Positions 4,092-55,117 of a stretch of DNA of 64,000 nt are shown here, one piece after another. How positions within the stretch are numbered: the stretch's first letter is position 1; each line of letters opens with the position of its first letter. The DNA is from Candidatus Moraniibacteriota bacterium (GTDB taxonomy: Bacteria; Patescibacteriota; Minisyncoccia; Moranbacterales; GWC2-37-73), in the NCBI GenBank assembly GCA_035325685.1, contig DAOKZJ010000001.1, forward strand, positions 160 to 64,159, read 5' to 3'. The notes beneath the pieces were generated by a model that ran no database searches, was not told the DNA's origin, and was given only the letters and a program-made list of their open reading frames with translations. The position numbers and the translations under genes are program-made.

Positions 4092-4108
4092 GTAAGGAGG
4101 GATGCAAA

Positions 4109-4450
4109 ATGGAGGTCATCATTTTCACTGCGGTTCTCTTTTGGGGAGCAAAAATCTGCGGCAAGCTTTACCTTTACGCCTCAACCAAAGCGACCAGCAC
4201 CGCTTGCCATCTCGAAAGATGCTCTTGGCTGCTGGGTGCTGCCAATTTTGCCTTGAGCGTTTTTGTTTTGTGCGCCTTGGGCACGCTTTTCCTTTTCGAA
4301 ATAGGCAAAGCCGCGTTCGGTTCATATCAAGAAAAGACGTGGCTTTTCAATTCCGCTTGGATTTGCGTTTCCTTGCTTTTCTCCCGCGGAATGCTTCCCC
4401 CAAAAACATCAATGCCCCCGGAGGAAAGCAATGACCTTGTCGGAACGTGA
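4109..4450 (+). CDS. Small hypothetical membrane protein (~113 aa)
   Basis: SD AAGGAGGG lies 7 nt before the internal ATG (MEVIIFTAVLF...). Two or three predicted TM helices. Confidence 0.5.
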   Translation: MEVIIFTAVLFWGAKICGKLYLYASTKATSTACHLERCSWLLGAANFALSVFVLCALGTLFLFEIGKAAFGSYQEKTWLFNSAWICVSLLFSRGMLPPKTSMPPEESNDLVGT

Positions 4451-4769
4451 CATAAAGGCCTTGGGACACCTGTTTAGCATCAAGGATCAGCGCCATGCGG
4501 AACTTTTGCTCCAAAGGCGCCTCCGCCGGGACGGTTTTCTTTTCGCGCGCATTGCCGTTTCTTACCCAGGCTTGCGCAAAAAGGCGATTCGGCGCATTTG
4601 CGGCCTTAAGGATTGCCGCGCGGATTCCCTGCGCTTCGTCTTGGAGCGTTCTTTGGCTGAAAGAAAGGAACAATGCAAGCTTGCCAAACTCTTGCTGCGC
4701 CTTGACTCGCGCAAAGATACCGCAGAGTTTGTGCGGCGCTGCTTGGTCCAAAACAAAGCCGGATCGTAA
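4431..4769 (+). CDS. Hypothetical protein (112 aa)
   Basis: SD GGAGGaaagca-ATG. Overlaps the upstream gene by 20 nt. A terminator follows. Confidence 0.5.
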   Translation: MTLSERDIKALGHLFSIKDQRHAELLLQRRLRRDGFLFARIAVSYPGLRKKAIRRICGLKDCRADSLRFVLERSLAERKEQCKLAKLLLRLDSRKDTAEFVRRCLVQNKAGS

Positions 4770-4794
4770 TTATCGATCCGGCTTTTCTTTTTTA
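4756..4794 (+). terminator. Rho-independent terminator
   Basis: Hairpin gccggatcg/cgatccggc followed by a T-run (ttttcttttttatt). Confidence 0.7.
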
Positions 4795-5204
4795 TTGCTT
4801 TCTTTTTCGCTCAGACGTCTTTTTTGCCCGATTTTTTTGGGCAAGTGCGGCCAAGATAAGCAAAAAAACAATGAGTCTGGTCTTTCCGACCTTGAGTCCT
4901 TCCGAGCTGAAGCAACCCATCCTTTGTACATCCTTCTCTAATAAAAAATCCGAAACCCTGGGTATTTCTACTACTCTGTATCTGACACCCTTCACGATCC
5001 TCTCCTCGCCTCCGGCTCCCTCTTTTTTCTTCAAAGAATCCCTCATGGCCTCCTCCTTTTTGACCAATCGAAACAGTTGTCAATATACTTTTTTGATTTT
5101 CCATGATAAATCAAAAAAACCTCTCCGTCAACTCTCTTGACTGCTTTTGGTTTTGACGCTTCAATTGTCAAAGAGTCCTTTTATAAAAATCCAAGGAGGT
5201 CCCT

Positions 5205-5621
5205 ATGGAATATGAAAATTTATACAACCGCATTCCCCAGCGCCAGGCGGCCGCAGAAAATGAGGCGTCTATCGTAATTGAGCTGCAAAAAATGCTTCTG
5301 GATCTCTGGGATGTTTTTTTCTTTTCCCAGGAAATACTCGTTCTTCCCCAAATAGCCAGCGGAACCAAAAGACACATCGTCGCTATCCAGGAAAAAATCA
5401 TGACTCACATTATGAACTTCGGTTACGCCTTAAGCTCCGCTCCTTTGCCGCAACTGGAAAAGGAAGAAGACTTGCTTTGTACCAAGATAGACTCGGTCAT
5501 CGATGAATTGAGTTTCTTTCTGGATGAATTGGAGGCTGCCTGGATGCTATTGGAACCGGATAGGCCCCTGCGAAGATTGCCCAGCGGCAAAATACAATTT
5601 CACAAAACCAGCGAGTGTTGA
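5205..5621 (+). CDS. Hypothetical protein (138 aa)
   Basis: SD AAGGAGGtcccT-ATG. No recognisable domain. Confidence 0.5.
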   Translation: MEYENLYNRIPQRQAAAENEASIVIELQKMLLDLWDVFFFSQEILVLPQIASGTKRHIVAIQEKIMTHIMNFGYALSSAPLPQLEKEEDLLCTKIDSVIDELSFFLDELEAAWMLLEPDRPLRRLPSGKIQFHKTSEC

Positions 5622-5630
5622 AAAAAAGGG

Positions 5631-5909
5631 ATGGATATAAGAGAAGCTCTCGCTCAAGTCTTAGATATCCTGTGTACAAAAATTGGGATATATTCTCCGC
5701 TAAAAAAAGCCCTCAACCTGGAATTTATCAATCGCTTATCTGTCCTGATAATGCTTTTGGTGGACGGCCGGTTTTCTTTACGCCTGCTTTTGATTTCCGA
5801 CTGCCTGCGCCGCAACAAGCATGAATGTGAACTCAGCCGCAAAGCGATCCGCTTTTTGCTTCCGACATACCGCTTACCGACATACCGTACGAGCTGGCCA
5901 GACGAGTAA
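5631..5909 (+). CDS. Hypothetical protein (92 aa)
   Basis: ORF 10 nt after the previous stop; only a weak SD (aaaaaaaggg-ATG). Called mainly from its co-orientation and spacing. Confidence 0.35.
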   Translation: MDIREALAQVLDILCTKIGIYSPLKKALNLEFINRLSVLIMLLVDGRFSLRLLLISDCLRRNKHECELSRKAIRFLLPTYRLPTYRTSWPDE

Positions 5910-6061
5910 AGTCCAGGCATGTTTTTAACCGCAAAAAGAAAGCTTTCGTACCTCGCGCGCTTCCCAGCGCCTACGCCCTTCGCCGAATGTTTGACCCTCC
6001 TAAATTATGAATTACTGCCCCCCAGCCATCCGCTGCCGGGGCTTTTTCTTTTTCCCCAACG

Positions 6062-6108
6062 CCCCACCCAAAAGCGAAGCTTTTGGGTAATGGCTCAAAT
6101 AAGGCAAA
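6062..6108. repeat. 47-bp direct repeat, copy 1, containing a GCGAAGC mini-hairpin
   Basis: ccccacccaaaagcgaagcttttgggtaatggctcaaataaggcaaa occurs again at 6765..6811. It carries a perfect hairpin cccaaaagc-GAA-gcttttggg; a third, partial hairpin is at 6112-6140. Confidence 0.85.
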
Positions 6109-6151
6109 TTCCTAAAGCGAAGCTTTTGGAGAAGCTTTAGAGCAAAAAATA

Positions 6152-6190
6152 AAGGCCGGATTATAAATTTAATCCGGCCTTTTCTTTTTT
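6152..6190. terminator. Bidirectional rho-independent terminator
   Basis: aaggccggatt-ataaa-ttaatccggcctt with an A-run before and a T-run after. Could terminate the plus-strand small-ORF run and the minus-strand gene 6621..6247. Confidence 0.75.
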
Positions 6191-6246
6191 TGCATGAGCA
6201 CCTGCTTCAATTAATTTCTGGAAATCATTTTGAAAATAAATCCCCG

Positions 6247-6621
6247 CTAGCTCCTCCTCTCCTCAGTCCGATAATTCTCCCAAAAGACATCCATAAAAGA
6301 AATAGCCTTTAGCAATTTTTCCGTCAAGCAAGAGGCATTTGCCATTACCGCCCCATTTATCCTGAAGCGCCTTTTATTCATGGAAACTCCCTGTCCATAC
6401 TCAGATAGAAAATAATCCTCTCCGTCCGGACCCTTGAAAATGAGGTTTATTTCGGAAGGACGGCCCAGATATTTTTGAGCCAGCCAAATGCGCAAAAAAT
6501 GACAATAAGCTTCGCGCAATGAACGCATGGGATTATTTGCATTCAACTTGAAATGGACTTCCAAAGCGAGCTTGCGATCCGCCAAAATAGCACAGCAATA
6601 ACTTCCGTGGCCGATTCCCAT
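6247..6621 (-). CDS. Hypothetical protein (124 aa), possibly a small nuclease-like protein
   Basis: Strong SD (aagaaGGGGGGAtttATG). Only a faint resemblance to small PD-(D/E)xK/YraN-like proteins (EINLIFKGPDGEDYFLSEYG). The gene lies between the two 47-bp direct repeats. Confidence 0.45.
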   Translation of the reverse strand: MGIGHGSYCCAILADRKLALEVHFKLNANNPMRSLREAYCHFLRIWLAQKYLGRPSEINLIFKGPDGEDYFLSEYGQGVSMNKRRFRINGAVMANASCLTEKLLKAISFMDVFWENYRTEERRS

Positions 6622-6764
6622 AAATCCCCCCTTCTTATAAAGTGAAGTGCTCTTATTTTAAAAAACTTCGTCTTAAATCCAAATATTCCTATCCCATCCT
6701 ACACCCGAAAAAAACATATGCAAAGTATCCCTCCTCCCAAAAAAATCCCCATTAATCCCAAAAA

Positions 6765-6811
6765 CCCCACCCAAAAGCGAAGCTTTTGGGTAATGGCTCA
6801 AATAAGGCAAA
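6765..6811. repeat. 47-bp direct repeat, copy 2
   Basis: Identical to 6062..6108. Confidence 0.85.
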
Positions 6812-6894
6812 AAACTCTTGGGGAAAGGGCAAAAAAGAACCTTTGCGCCATACTCCAAGGGGGTTGTTTTTTAAGTCATCCGGAAACATTCACT

Positions 6895-6925
6895 TAAAGA
6901 GCGGGGTTCAATCCCCGCTCTTTTT
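6895..6925. terminator. Hairpin / terminator at the dnaK 3' end
   Basis: agagcgggg-ttcaat-ccccgctct with a T-run on the plus side and an A-run before. It lies directly after the dnaK stop. Confidence 0.5.
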
Positions 6926-6930
6926 TCAAA

Positions 6931-8832
6931 CTATTTTTTATCGCCGTTTTCTACTTCCGCGTCTTTCACCTCACCTTCGTCTTTTTTCTCTTCGCTGCCT
7001 TCAGCGCCGGCTTGTGTGCCTTCGGCGGCTTGCGTGGCGGCATAAAGCTTCTCGCCGATCTTTTGCGCCGCTTGGGAAAGCACTTCGGTCTTGGCCTTGA
7101 TCTGCTCCAGGTCGTCGCCGTTTTTCACCTTGTTGAGCTCCTCGATCGCCTCCTTAACGGGCTTGGCTTCTTCTTCACTCACTTTGTCGCCCGCCTCCTT
7201 AAGCGCTTTTTCCGTGGTGTACACCAACGTGTCGGCCAAGTTGCGCGCTTCCACCAGTTCCTTTTTGCGCTTGTCCTCTTCGGCATGCATCTCGGCATCT
7301 TTTTTCATCTTTTCGATTTCTTCCTTGGAAAGACCGCTGGAGGCTTCAATCTTGATGGATTGCGACTTGCCGGTCGCCTTATCCTTGGCGGTCACGCTCA
7401 ATATCCCGTTTGCGTCGATATCGAAAGTTACTTCGACTTGAGGAACACCGCGAGGAGCGGGAGGAATCCCGTCAAGAATGAACCGTCCCAATGTCTTGTT
7501 CCCGCTCGCCAATTCGCGCTCGCCTTGCAGGACATGGATCTCCACGCTCGGCTGGTTGTCAGCTGCGGTTGAAAATACCTGCGACTTGGCTGTCGGTACG
7601 GTCGTGTTCCTTTCGATAAGCGGAGTGGAAATTCCGCCCATCGTTTCTATTCCGAGTGTCAACGGAGTTACGTCCAACAGTAACACGTCCTTGACGCTTC
7701 CCTCCAAGACTCCGCCCTGGATTGCGGCCCCCAGGGCCACCACTTCGTCCGGATTCACGCTGATATTGGGTTTTTTGCCAAAAAACTTCTCCACTGTCGA
7801 AAGCACTAACGGCATCCTCGTCATTCCACCGACCATCACCACCTCGTTGATATCGGCAGCGCTCAGTTTGGCATCAGCCAAGGCTTTCTTTACCGGCTCC
7901 AAGGTTTTTTCCACCAAATCTCCTACCAATTCTTCCAGTTTGGCTCGCGTGAGCTTCATAACCAGGTGCCTGGGACCCGAAGCATCGCTCGTGATGAACG
8001 GTTGGTTTATTTCCGTTTCTTGCGCGGTCGAAAGTTCGATTTTGGCTTTTTCCGCAGCTTCCTTGATGCGCTGCAGTGCCAGCGGATCCTTGGAAAGATC
8101 AATTCCTTCTGTTTTTTTGAATTCGTCGATGATCCAAGTGATGATCTTTTGGTCAAAGTCATCCCCACCCAAGTGCGTGTCGCCGTTGGTCGACTTTACC
8201 TCCACTGTGTCTCCACCCACTTCCAAGATGGAAATATCGAACGTGCCGCCTCCCAAGTCATATACGGCTATTTTCTCATCGTTTTTCTTGTCGAATCCAT
8301 AAGCCAAAGCAGCCGCCGTCGGCTCATTGATGATGCGGCGCACGTTCAGGCCGGCGATTTCGCCCGCTTCTTTGGTTGCCTTTCTTTGCGAGTCGTCAAA
8401 ATAAGCCGGCACGGTAATGACCGCATCCGTGATCGTCTCGCCCAATTTCTCCTCCGCATCCGCTTTGAGTTTTTGGAGAATCATCGCGGATATCTCCTGC
8501 GGCGTATAATCTTTGTCGCCCATCTGCACCTTGACCGTTTCGCCGGCATGCACAATTTTGTACGGCATGAGCTTTTCGTCACGCTGTACTTCGCTGTCAT
8601 GATAAGCCCGTCCGATCAAGCGCTTGATGGAAAACAAGGTATTGGTCGGATTGGTCACCGCTTGGCGCTTAGCCAAAAGACCCACCAGCCTCTCGTTAGT
8701 TTTAGAAATAGCTACCATTGAAGGTGTGGTACGCGCCCCTTCTTTGTTCTCGATTATCTCGGGTTTTCCTCCCATCACGACGGCCATCGCCGAATTGGTG
8801 GTGCCCAGGTCGATTCCCAAAATCTTGCCCAT
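6931..8832 (-). CDS. dnaK: Chaperone DnaK (Hsp70)
   Basis: [14 protein letters not shown]..., DLGGGTFD, the [11 protein letters not shown] motif, and a 633-aa length with a C-terminal lid domain. Confidence 0.97.
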
Positions 8833-10532: not shown

Positions 10533-11291
10533 TCAAAATCCCAGTACTCTTGCGGATTCAGTGGCAATTATTATTACCGCCGAACCGCTCAGCATCTTCT
10601 TTACGTATTCGATAAGCGATTTGTTCTTGTCGTAGCGCATGCGCTTGGGTCCGATAAGCGCCAAAATGCCTTTTTCCCCTTGTTTGGTGCGATACGGCGA
10701 CACGATCATCGAACAATTGGAGATGTCTGTGATGGGGTTTTCTTTGCCAATAAAGATGCGCGTCTCGCCGTCTTTCAATTCAGCCATGAGCAAATCGAAT
10801 TTCTCATCCACATAATCCAGCACTTCCGCCAAACGGCACACCTCGTCCAGTTCGCGAAATTCCGGCTGCTCCATCAGCTCGCGCATGCCGAACTCGGAAA
10901 ACTCGTCTTTGTCCAAAATGCCGCTGATTGCCAGATTGCCGCTCAGATGCGACATGAGCTTGGCGGTCGTCTTGGTTAGGCGCGTATGCTGCGCTTTGAG
11001 TTTCAAAAATTCCTTTTGCAATTTGAGCTGCTCCTCGCGCGAAAGCTCCTTGTCAGCCATCACTTTCTCCACGAAAAAGCGATACCCTTTGTCGGTCGGA
11101 ATGCGTCCGGCGCTGGTGTGCGGCTGATGCAAAAAACCTTTCTCTTCCAAGGCCGCCATATCGTTGCGGATCGTAGCCGGACTTACCTGGAAATCATATT
11201 TGTCCACCAGCACTTTGGAACCGACCGGCTCGGCGGTCTGCGTGTATTCCTCAATGATGGCCGCCAATATTTTTTCTTGTCTTGTATTCAT
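10533..11291 (-). CDS. hrcA: Heat-inducible transcription repressor HrcA
   Basis: N-terminal winged HTH (QEKILAAIIEEYTQTAEPVGSKVL...SPATIRNDMAALEEKGFL). Positioned upstream of grpE, with a CIRCE element upstream. Confidence 0.9.
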   Translation of the reverse strand: MNTRQEKILAAIIEEYTQTAEPVGSKVLVDKYDFQVSPATIRNDMAALEEKGFLHQPHTSAGRIPTDKGYRFFVEKVMADKELSREEQLKLQKEFLKLKAQHTRLTKTTAKLMSHLSGNLAISGILDKDEFSEFGMRELMEQPEFRELDEVCRLAEVLDYVDEKFDLLMAELKDGETRIFIGKENPITDISNCSMIVSPYRTKQGEKGILALIGPKRMRYDKNKSLIEYVKKMLSGSAVIIIATESARVLGF

Positions 11292-11355
11292 ATAAAACCC
11301 CGCTGTCCCGAATGAATGCACTGATTACGCTGATGAATATATCTTATCTCATAGG

Positions 11356-11382
11356 TTAGCAGTCGTCAAGTCCGAGTGCTAA
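11356..11382. promoter_or_regulatory. CIRCE-like element upstream of hrcA
   Basis: TTAGCAGTC-N9-GAGTGCTAA. A TTGACG -35-like hexamer lies within the spacer and a TAAGAT -10 follows on the minus strand. Confidence 0.75.
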
Positions 11383-11489
11383 TTCGTTATTTACTACTTC
11401 CCTTGCCGGCTTTTTCTTGCATTTCTAAGCACGAAAAAGCCGCCCGGGAGTCCCTGGCGGCTCTAAATTCGCTATTTGAGATTGTGGCC

Positions 11490-11678
11490 CTAATTAAAAC
11501 AGGCCAACTTGCACTCGTGGGTGCAAACCTCTCTCTCCCCTTCACTGGCCAATTCGTAGAAAGCCGTGACCGCATTGAAGCTGGTTATCTCCGCAACGCC
11601 GGTCTTGCTTTCGCTGAGGCGACAATTGACCGGGCGGTCGCCTGCGCATGCAAACGCTGACACGCTTGCTTTTCCCAT
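11490..11678 (-). CDS. Small cysteine-rich hypothetical protein (62 aa)
   Basis: Strong SD (aaaAAGGAGGGatggcaac-ATG). Sequence MGKASVSAFACAGDRPVNCRLSE...EVCTHECKLACFN with 5 Cys. Confidence 0.45.
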   Translation of the reverse strand: MGKASVSAFACAGDRPVNCRLSESKTGVAEITSFNAVTAFYELASEGEREVCTHECKLACFN

Positions 11679-11697
11679 GTTGCCATCCCTCCTTTTT

Positions 11698-11943
11698 TTA
11701 ACTCCTCTTATTTGGCAGACAAGCGAAGCCGCTTTGGCCGCAACCGGAAATGCACACCTCCATACGGTGGCTAGGCCCCGAGCTCATAATAACTTCGGTT
11801 GCCGAACTCACAGGGATGCTCTTTCCTGCCCGCGGACAGAAAACATGATCCCGGGCTATCTTCTTGCCGTGGCGCACCGTAACCATGGCACCAGATACTG
11901 TCAACACCACCGACCCATGAAGCGAGTTTTTAGCATGCACCAT
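11698..11943 (-). CDS. Small hypothetical protein (81 aa)
   Basis: Strong SD (aaAAGGAGagagaac-ATG). Cys-containing C-terminus (CPRAGKS...CISGCGQSGFAC). Confidence 0.5.
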   Translation of the reverse strand: MVHAKNSLHGSVVLTVSGAMVTVRHGKKIARDHVFCPRAGKSIPVSSATEVIMSSGPSHRMEVCISGCGQSGFACLPNKRS

Positions 11944-12011
11944 GTTCTCTCTCCTTTTTTCAATGAATTGAGATGCAGCGCCGCAAAGCTCCCCCTTTCC
12001 GCCCTCCTGGC

Positions 12012-12146
12012 TTAATTACCCCTCTTCTCCTGTTCGCTACGGGGATCCTCCGCTTCCTTGGGACAATCGCCCATAATGGAAACAGGGATGCTTCTTTTTG
12101 GATCACCCGCCGTCCTGCGCATTTCCTCGCAAATATCTTCTGTCAT
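12012..12146 (-). CDS. Possible micro-ORF (44 aa)
   Basis: My own translation: MTEDICEEMRRTAGDPKRSIPVSIMGDCPKEAEDPRSEQEKRGN, preceded by aaaggacagg. Not in the ORF track (under 60 aa). Confidence 0.25.
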   Translation of the reverse strand: MTEDICEEMRRTAGDPKRSIPVSIMGDCPKEAEDPRSEQEKRGN

Positions 12147-12207
12147 GACCTGTCCTTTCCCGCGTTTTTAAAAAGCGCGTATTTTGTTTTCAAAAAACCA
12201 CCTTTTC

Positions 12208-12513
12208 CTATATATTGAAATCCTCTTTTTTCCCTATTGCTTGCACATTGTCGCTTTTTTCAATCCCCCGTTCCGGCACCGGATCATATCCGCCTTCATT
12301 CCAGGGATGGCAACGCAAAACCCTCTTGGCCGCAAGCCAACCGCCGCGCACCACGCCGAATCTCCCGATAGCCGCATAGGCATATTCGCTGCAGCTAGGA
12401 TAATGCCGGCAAACGCGCAGCGGCAAAATCCTGCCCAAAAGCCCGTGGTCCAACGAAAGCGTCTTTTGGTAAGCCTTTAGCAATAAAAGTACGGCCTTGC
12501 TCATATAAGGCAT
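12208..12513 (-). CDS. yidD: Membrane protein insertion efficiency factor YidD
   Basis: YidD (haemolytic-domain) signature: [46 protein letters not shown]. Confidence 0.85.
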
Positions 12514-12536
12514 ATCCTACGTATTTTGACCATTTT

Positions 12537-12565
12537 TGTCAATAAGACTTTTTGGCTGTATAATG
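12537..12565 (+). promoter_or_regulatory. Sigma-70-like promoter for corA
   Basis: TTGTCA, a 17-nt spacer, then TATAAT, about 50 nt upstream of the corA ATG. Confidence 0.5.
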
Positions 12566-54649: not shown

Positions 54650-55117
54650 GGGGAAAATGAGTATGTTGCCTGCCCAAGCAAACATGTAAGCCGGATTCTG
54701 TCACTTCCGCAAAACAGAAGCGGACAACTATTTATCTAGCTCTGGCGTTTCCGCCAGAATCAAGCGGCACTCCGCCGACGCAAAAGCGTCGCCGGCACGG
54801 CCTTGCACCACGCAGGGTTTGCCATCTTCCGCCGTCGCCGGCGGAGAACTGCCGTAGCCCACATCCTTTGCTAATCAGCTGATGAAGCAAAGTCGTGTAC
54901 CTCGGCAAACTTTTCACCTTTTGCCAGCGCTGCGCACTGGCTAGTATAGTCTCTGTGGCACTTTCCCTTCCACGGCGTCACCGCTGTGGCGGTGGGCGTT
55001 ACCCACTGCGCCTAATCCCGACAAGTCGGAATTGGTGTCCGGACTTTCCTCTCTCCGCCTAAGCGGACAGCAGCTGTCCCGCCTGCTACGACAGGCAACA
55101 CACTCATCTTTTCCCGG
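54650..55117 (-). ncRNA. rnpB: RNase P RNA (bacterial-type)
   Basis: The minus strand has GGCGGAGAGAGGAAAGTCCGGACACC (P4 5' strand) and ACAGAATCCGGCTTAC (P4 3' strand / CR-V). An extended P1 pairs 5' GAGUGUGUUGCCUG with 3' CAGGCAACAUACUC. Length is about 450 nt; the ends are approximate. Confidence 0.8.

Follow-up and report, generated by a model that had tools for sequence, protein, structure and literature searches.

Evidence for three small cysteine-containing protein genes between yidD and hrcA in a Candidatus Moranbacteria genome

Several described systems offer points of comparison for small proteins with closely spaced cysteines. The WhiB-like (Wbl) proteins of Actinobacteria are small cytoplasmic [4Fe-4S] proteins with four invariant cysteines, in which a remote Cys lies about 27-30 residues before a CxxCx5C triad, with a GVWGG turn and a basic tail after it. 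The C-terminal zinc redox-switch domain of Hsp33 and the small archaeal and bacterial Cys4 zinc-finger micro-proteins carry four Cys in two groups about 27-32 residues apart within a small domain, with Hsp33 and zinc ribbons using CxC or CxxC knuckles. Precursor peptides of the SCIFF, ranthipeptide and sactipeptide types are about 45-80 aa long, are sometimes encoded in tandem and have a three-residue-spaced Cys run near one end; SCIFF and thuricin-CD-type peptides are examples with such Cys runs. YidD (PF01809) is a small protein with conserved cysteines and is universal. The thioether chemistry of sactipeptides has been reviewed (PMC5682303).

The locus described here lies in a metagenome-assembled genome of Candidatus Moranbacteria (CPR/Patescibacteria), within a 64-kb stretch of DNA that was analysed as a whole (hereafter the window) and has ENA contig ERZ794915 NODE_111 as its counterpart. 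An earlier note had pointed to an apparently gene-free stretch of about 900 bp between yidD and hrcA on the minus strand and proposed that it holds three small Cys-containing ORFs. Between the stop codon of yidD and the ATG of hrcA lie 916 nt (12207..11292), Pfam identifies YidD upstream and HrcA downstream of this interval, and the three minus-strand ORFs (ORF44, ORF81 and ORF62) were found with the coordinates, lengths, Cys counts and C-terminal motifs that had been claimed (Table 1). The order on the minus strand is yidD promoter, yidD, ORF44, ORF81, ORF62, terminator, CIRCE/hrcA promoter, hrcA, grpE, hsp20 and dnaK, with corA and cysS transcribed divergently on the other side of yidD. HrcA is only about 252 aa long here, a length that is identical in all clade relatives; the usual length of HrcA is about 340 aa. 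As for rnpA and rpmH, which the earlier note had called absent, neither gene was detectable anywhere in the 64-kb window when L34 of E. coli and RnpA of B. subtilis served as tblastn queries (best E about 2). Apart from the terminator hairpin described below, Rfam matched the window only at an RNase P RNA of the bacterial class A type (177 bits), far from yidD, and a tRNA/tmRNA scan found none.

Table 1. Coordinates of genes and predicted elements around the yidD-hrcA interval and elsewhere in the window. SD, Shine-Dalgarno site, read from the sequence.
Feature	Coordinates	Strand	Description
corA promoter (putative)	12536..12564	+	TTGTCA-17-TATAAT; consensus scan, pattern match only
yidD promoter (putative)	12542..12514	-	Sigma-70-like TTGACA-17-TAGGAT; consensus scan, pattern match only
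yidD	12208..12513	-	Membrane protein insertion efficiency factor; Pfam PF01809; NCBI HMN18982.1; 98 aa from ATG at 12504, or 101 aa from 12513
ORF44	12146..12012	-	44 aa, acidic, pI 4.8; 2 Cys (C6, C28); SD AAGGA, 6 nt ahead of ATG; NCBI HMN18981.1
ORF81	11943..11698	-	81 aa, basic, pI 9.95; 4 Cys (C36, C64, C68, C75); SD AGGAG, 7 nt ahead of ATG
ORF62	11678..11490	-	62 aa, pI 5.2; 5 Cys (11, 19, 52, 56, 60); SD GGAGG, 9 nt ahead of ATG; NCBI HMN18980.1
Intrinsic terminator (predicted)	11461..11434	-	GCCGCCAGGGACUCCCGGGCGGC then UUUUU; folding
CIRCE-like operator (presumed)	11382..11356	-	TTAGCACTC-N9-GACTGCTAA; read from sequence
hrcA promoter (putative)	11369..11341	-	TTGACG-17-TAAGAT; promoter scan
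hrcA	10533..11291	-	ATG at 11291; Pfam HrcA match
dnaK	6931..8832	-	
RNase P class A RNA	54671..55089	-	Rfam, whole window

Each of the three starts is preceded by an SD site, in agreement with the near-consensus sites claimed earlier. Cysteine makes up 4.5-8% of the residues in the small ORFs as against about 1% in the long ORFs of the window. The Cys region of ORF81 reads CPRAG ... CISGCGQSGFAC, and ORF62 ends in CTHECKLACFN (VCTHECKLACFN). The GRAVY values of all three proteins are about 0 or negative. The small ORFs are called as genes by Prodigal-type callers, and ORF62 and ORF44 also by NCBI. ORF81 carries no NCBI/PGAP annotation, the locus tags PKA31_00080 (ORF62) and PKA31_00085 (ORF44) being consecutive, and only gene calls of ENA and Logan include its protein.

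The comparison that proved decisive was with the Logan contig L028, which encodes an HrcA of 94% identity to that of the window; near-identical contigs (99.6%) were too close to inform on selection. L028 keeps all three ORFs open, with 43 aa for ORF44, 80 aa for ORF81 (71% identity) and 61 aa for ORF62. Substitutions in the nucleotide alignment are visibly three-periodic: the differences at the three codon positions were 15/12/38 in ORF81, 12/10/25 in ORF62 and 10/9/23 in ORF44, as compared to 23/19/41 in yidD and 13/5/75 in hrcA. The third position thus takes 38 of 65, 25 of 47 and 23 of 42 differences in the three small ORFs, respectively (chi-square on the codon-position counts, p about 1e-4, 0.015 and 0.013). 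By the Nei-Gojobori method, dN/dS was 0.148 for ORF81 and 0.113 for ORF62, as compared to 0.185 for yidD and 0.042 for hrcA; for ORF44, pN was 0.23 and pS 0.75 (pN/pS 0.30). Across the three ORFs, pN/pS was 0.23-0.30 versus 0.35 for yidD. The indels, a single one of 3 nt in ORF44 and two of 9 and 3 nt in ORF81, are all multiples of three, and an 11-nt indel at the N-terminus of ORF62 is absorbed through a shifted start codon. Other pairs in the family and cassette described below gave pN/pS values of 0.17-0.64, which is coding-type divergence. Since the frames are kept in L028, the substitutions are three-periodic and dN/dS is low, we conclude from the alignments that ORF44, ORF81 and ORF62 are real protein-coding genes under purifying selection of about the same strength as that on yidD. 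The stretch that had looked empty thus holds small protein genes, as the earlier note had supposed. As a separate observation, 7 of the 30 SNPs that were counted over 8.3 kb against the 99.6%-identical strains (L002/L003) fall within 410 bp (11574-11984), a local excess of polymorphism; those in ORF62 comprise three synonymous and two non-synonymous changes.

HrcA-based scans of genomes and metagenomes gave 45 loci. Where HrcA is 72-81% identical, most loci of the clade have corA and cysS running in one direction and, divergently, yidD followed after 0.6-1.3 kb by hrcA, and these same housekeeping neighbours are found in about 22 related loci. The arrangement was absent from distant HrcA loci (34-49% identity), and six close relatives (L009, L010, L014, L016, L017 and L020) have other genes in the yidD-hrcA slot instead. 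When a panel of 24 relatives was searched by blastn and tblastn, only CIRCE and yidD were conserved; the CIRCE/hrcA promoter segment was the only part of the interval conserved in blastn (18 relatives), and tblastn with the three ORFs gave no match in relatives with 72-81% identical HrcA. Homologs missed by these searches were recovered through ORF listing and profiles, and about 15 distinct loci of related Moranbacteria proved to have SD-preceded homologs of ORF81 and ORF62 in this gap between yidD and hrcA.

The members of this four-Cys family are 60-140 aa long, including 'long' variants of 108-140 aa in L018 and L019, and share the pattern C-x~27-C-x3-C-x3/6-C, in which the third spacing is x6 in ORF81 and x3 otherwise. 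In an alignment of 17 members no positions are better conserved than the cysteines: C64 and C68 (ORF81 numbering) do not vary, and at least 90% of the members retain C36 and C75. A check for homologs in related genomes and for retention of their cysteines, which the earlier note had suggested, was positive. The corresponding cysteines of ORF62 are C19, C52, C56 and C60, with C11 additional. Many members further show a V-x-V-x-x-GKG strand region near the N-terminus, and the signature is completed by (V/F)(F/Y)-C in the middle and [VI]-C-x3-C-x3(6)-C at the C-terminus. No signal peptide or hydrophobic (membrane) segment was evident when the sequences of the family proteins were inspected. An HMM of eight ORF81-like sequences without ORF62, searched against 6380 six-frame ORFs, gave its best matches outside the training set to the 61-aa ORF of L028 (E=2e-5) and to ORF62 (E=9.5e-5), with the long variants of L018 and L019 next (E=0.002-0.07). 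When a profile of ORF81, ORF62 and P0009 was used, the untrained L006, L036, L005 and L004 proteins were the top non-training matches (E 2e-4 to 0.055), these links between distant members being of weak E-value in a small local database with alignments partly assembled by eye. The 85-aa protein of L036 bridges the two paralogs, having 'FTCPIRGDVP' like ORF81 and 'VCIHECNCSC' like ORF62. Since profiles that exclude the tested sequence recover family members, ORF81 and ORF62 are, as judged from these matches, tandem paralogs of one four-Cys family.

Among 5.8 billion proteins, ORF62 found one homolog, and the family profile found six proteins, all from the yidD-hrcA loci identified here, with no others added at a looser cut-off. 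In a search of 1.84 billion representatives that was read exhaustively, P0009, P0008 and P0012 were real matches and the other three were tandem-repeat artefacts. No recognisable relatives outside the clade were present among the 5.8 billion and 1.84 billion proteins, searches of the ORFs and their relatives against Pfam, NCBIfam and PDB sequences gave nothing significant, and the literature searched for small Cys proteins and RiPPs in Patescibacteria offered nothing relevant. The four-Cys family is previously undescribed, fast-evolving and restricted to one Moranbacteria clade. ORF44 has relatives only in L028 and near-identical strains and is an orphan. A kinship of ORF44 to the 'IECSH' small proteins (L021 N-terminus), seen by eye, was not significant (E=2.6) and was rejected.

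Further small Cys-rich families recur in the same slot. In the gaps of L004-L049 (for example, L007 3054-3763, L013 3137-3760, L018 3011-3879 and L012 2845-3493), SD-preceded families were observed with the signatures 'MC(V/I)SSGGCxGVYxDxEFR' (44-54 aa), 'CDGKMx4CxxCQFx3C' (59-62 aa), 'I(V/I)ECSH' (54-73 aa) and 'MKKR..VVTYGALCIQDICRRGVPADN' (37 aa, 'MKKR...ADN'), as well as very basic Cys-rich proteins of 50-70 aa in L012, L037, L038 and L042. Each further family was recovered by its own HMM at E < 1e-20, within the slot only, and cassette content varies strongly between related genomes. At L021 (2952-3701), a 249-aa ORF consists of an 'IECSH'-type small protein fused to a long four-Cys-family protein, the two parts of which are separate adjacent genes in L019 (3144-3365 and 3442-3768). 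Such a fusion may point to joint function in the Rosetta-stone sense, or it may come from an assembly frameshift.

The three small genes are probably co-transcribed with yidD, which promoter pattern scans suggest to be the first gene of the unit; the consensus scan gave no promoter match inside the interval besides that of hrcA, and L019 has a promoter-like site of its own ahead of the cassette. Closing the predicted yidD-ORF44-ORF81-ORF62 unit is an intrinsic terminator whose hairpin has an MFE of -24.5 kcal/mol (z -4.1; none of 200 shuffles equally stable) and is conserved in L028. Downstream of it, an operator that we take to be CIRCE-like and the putative hrcA promoter, which overlap, would mark the start of a separate hrcA-grpE-hsp20-dnaK unit; the CIRCE spacer contains the -35 element of this promoter. 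The putative promoters of corA (+) and yidD (-) stand face-to-face and overlap, likewise in L028, L004 and L019, which suggests coupled or mutually exclusive transcription of the two genes. Between yidD and ORF44, positions 12161-12181 form a near-perfect palindrome, ACGCGCTTTTTAAAAACGCG(G), which is probably not functional because it is not conserved in L028. Downstream of dnaK, about 2.8 kb (4100-6930) contain no ORF of at least 150 aa in any frame (the longest being 148, 138, 134 and 124 aa) and no Rfam gathering match; this gene-poor segment may hide small genes or an uncatalogued RNA.

On these observations, the reading that we consider probable is that yidD, ORF44, ORF81 and ORF62 form an operon encoding, next to YidD, small intracellular thiolate proteins that bind a metal or an Fe-S cluster or act as redox switches. 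Transcription would start at the yidD promoter, run through ORF44, ORF81 and ORF62, and end at the terminator before the CIRCE-controlled hrcA operon. The four conserved thiols would form one cytoplasmic site, namely a Zn(Cys)4 site, an Fe-S cluster or a thiol/disulfide switch; the proteins would act as small metal- or redox-active factors alongside YidD, neither secreted nor post-translationally tailored, and ORF44 would be an acidic two-Cys orphan partner. Since the divergent corA is conserved, the role is perhaps in metal handling; perhaps it is exerted with YidD, which has conserved cysteines itself. The linkage to yidD, corA or hrcA could also be plain inherited synteny without functional meaning. 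AlphaFold2 models, which were based on shallow alignments, reached pLDDT values of 43 for ORF81 and 49 for ORF62, which do not permit a site to be read, and at this low confidence hint at N-terminal strands and, for ORF62, at a C-terminal helix carrying the Cys triad. The spacing of a lone Cys and Cx3Cx3C matches no classical zinc-ribbon or ferredoxin motif, ORF81 and ORF62 have no CxxC pair, and they gave no zinc-finger Pfam match.

With the Wbl proteins the four-Cys family shares small size, four cysteines and the distance of the remote Cys from the triad, but its Cx3Cx3(6)C motif stands at the very C-terminus, it gave no Pfam Whib match and it belongs to a different phylum; the resemblance is architectural only. 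The separation of two Cys groups recalls the Hsp33 domain and the Cys4 micro-proteins, but the family is without CxC or CxxC knuckles and no sequence similarity was detected. The small Cys genes lie close to heat-shock genes, but a terminator separates the cassette from the hrcA operon. The likeness to SCIFF, ranthipeptide and sactipeptide precursors lies in length, tandem arrangement and the three-residue-spaced Cys run, but the family differs in its additional conserved Cys at the centre, its strand region at the N-terminus, members of up to 140 aa and its housekeeping neighbours; no rSAM/SPASM maturase appeared next to it or among the annotated genes of the window, and no NCBIfam precursor model matched. 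For the SCIFF/ranthipeptide/sactipeptide, zinc-ribbon and WhiB groups, every testable hallmark of membership was absent. YidD is encoded with the ORFs in what would be one transcription unit and evolves at a similar rate (dN/dS 0.19), but it has no sequence similarity to ORF44, ORF81 or ORF62, and unlike it the small ORFs are clade-specific.

Other explanations have to be weighed against these small metal- or redox-active proteins. That the ORFs arose by chance in a non-coding interval, be it a structured RNA or decaying DNA, would fit the lack of tblastn matches in relatives with 72-81% identical HrcA, the missing NCBI annotation of ORF81 and the higher SNP density (7/30 SNPs in 410 bp) between 99.6%-identical strains. 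We give this reading next to no credence, since L028 preserves the three ORFs with codon-periodic substitutions and low dN/dS, profile searches recover homologs and a strong SD site precedes every start. In the Rfam search of the interval (E up to 1) only the terminator hairpin was hit, by two sub-threshold sRNA models, RcsR1 and ncS54 (23 and 18 bits, with gathering scores of 60 and 43, respectively), weak matches that are explained by the hairpin itself; no match reached the gathering level, and the non-coding RNA reading was rejected. The earlier note had named a conserved RNA in place of conserved ORFs as grounds for giving up its proposal, and homologous ORFs with codon-periodic substitutions were found instead. 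Its suggestion of RiPP-like precursors fared less well. In that reading, the ORFs would encode precursors of sactipeptide, ranthipeptide or SCIFF type whose Cys triads are cross-linked by an rSAM/SPASM maturase; the small tandem genes with a C-terminal Cx3Cx3C triad, the strong differences in cassette content among related genomes and the fact that no other function is evident for small Cys proteins speak for it. As the earlier note had already observed, however, no maturase gene is nearby: among the annotated genes of the window and about 4-6 kb of flank at each end, no Pfam match to radical SAM, SPASM, LanM, MNIO, protease or ABC exporter families was found, in a scan that covered the window in part and in which some ORFs had no Pfam match. 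With no radical SAM/SPASM or LanM gene among those annotated there, the precursor reading lacks support, and an NCBIfam scan of the three ORFs and seven relatives (E up to 10) gave no precursor family match. The neighbours in about 22 syntenic loci are always cysS, corA, yidD and hrcA, conservation spans the N-terminal strand region and the central Cys with no leader/core pattern, lengths of 108-140 aa occur, as does a fusion protein of 249 aa, and the dN/dS of the small ORFs is similar to that of yidD. Since a maturase could sit elsewhere in the genome, the precursor reading is retained as an improbable one.

It is also conceivable, though unlikely, that these are small nucleic-acid-binding or regulatory proteins that control neighbouring genes, with the GKG strand region acting as a CAT/BglG-type RNA-binding domain or with the whole resembling a WhiB-like Fe-S factor. 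ORF81 is basic (pI 9.95), very basic Cys-rich ORFs occupy the same slot in L012, L037, L038 and L042, and one remote Cys followed by a Cys triad resembles the WhiB layout. The homolog of L004 showed a weak CAT_RBD match (PF03123, E=0.12) over the 'IITSGKGICFAKKPEA' segment, but this was seen in just one of 17 members and none was significant, and the lead was rejected. Against nucleic-acid binding, ORF62 and ORF44 are acidic, no WhiB Pfam match was obtained at E up to 10, and there was no match among PDB sequences, the best being C2H2 zinc fingers at E 0.05 or worse. A broader proposal, which we regard as rather unlikely, is that the slot is a diversifying cassette of several unrelated small Cys-rich families, among them the four-Cys family and the 'MCxSSGGC', 'CDGKMx4CxxCQF', 'IECSH' and 37-aa 'MKKR...ADN' proteins, that would form a CPR-specific thiol- or metal-based system with YidD.

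The genomes of CPR/Patescibacteria are tiny, and a large share of them consists of unexplained lineage-specific genes. Here, an interval that had seemed empty proves to carry several genes for small cysteine proteins, a cassette that is linked to yidD and under selection. Small genes of this kind diverge so fast that BLAST does not detect them at 75-80% HrcA identity, and the absence of ORF81 from GenBank calls for a correction of the annotation. The result is a new, narrowly distributed small-protein family that can be defined by its signature and about 15 loci, a modest and descriptive advance; its interest would rise if metal or Fe-S binding, a partnership with YidD or peptide tailoring proved true. 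The four-Cys family offers a putative link to the poorly understood YidD and putative candidates for metal or Fe-S binding. If the broader proposal were true, the cassette and YidD could handle Fe-S clusters or metals in a relay of a new kind, or the products could be small effectors for the episymbiotic lifestyle, modified by an enzyme whose gene lies in another part of the genome.
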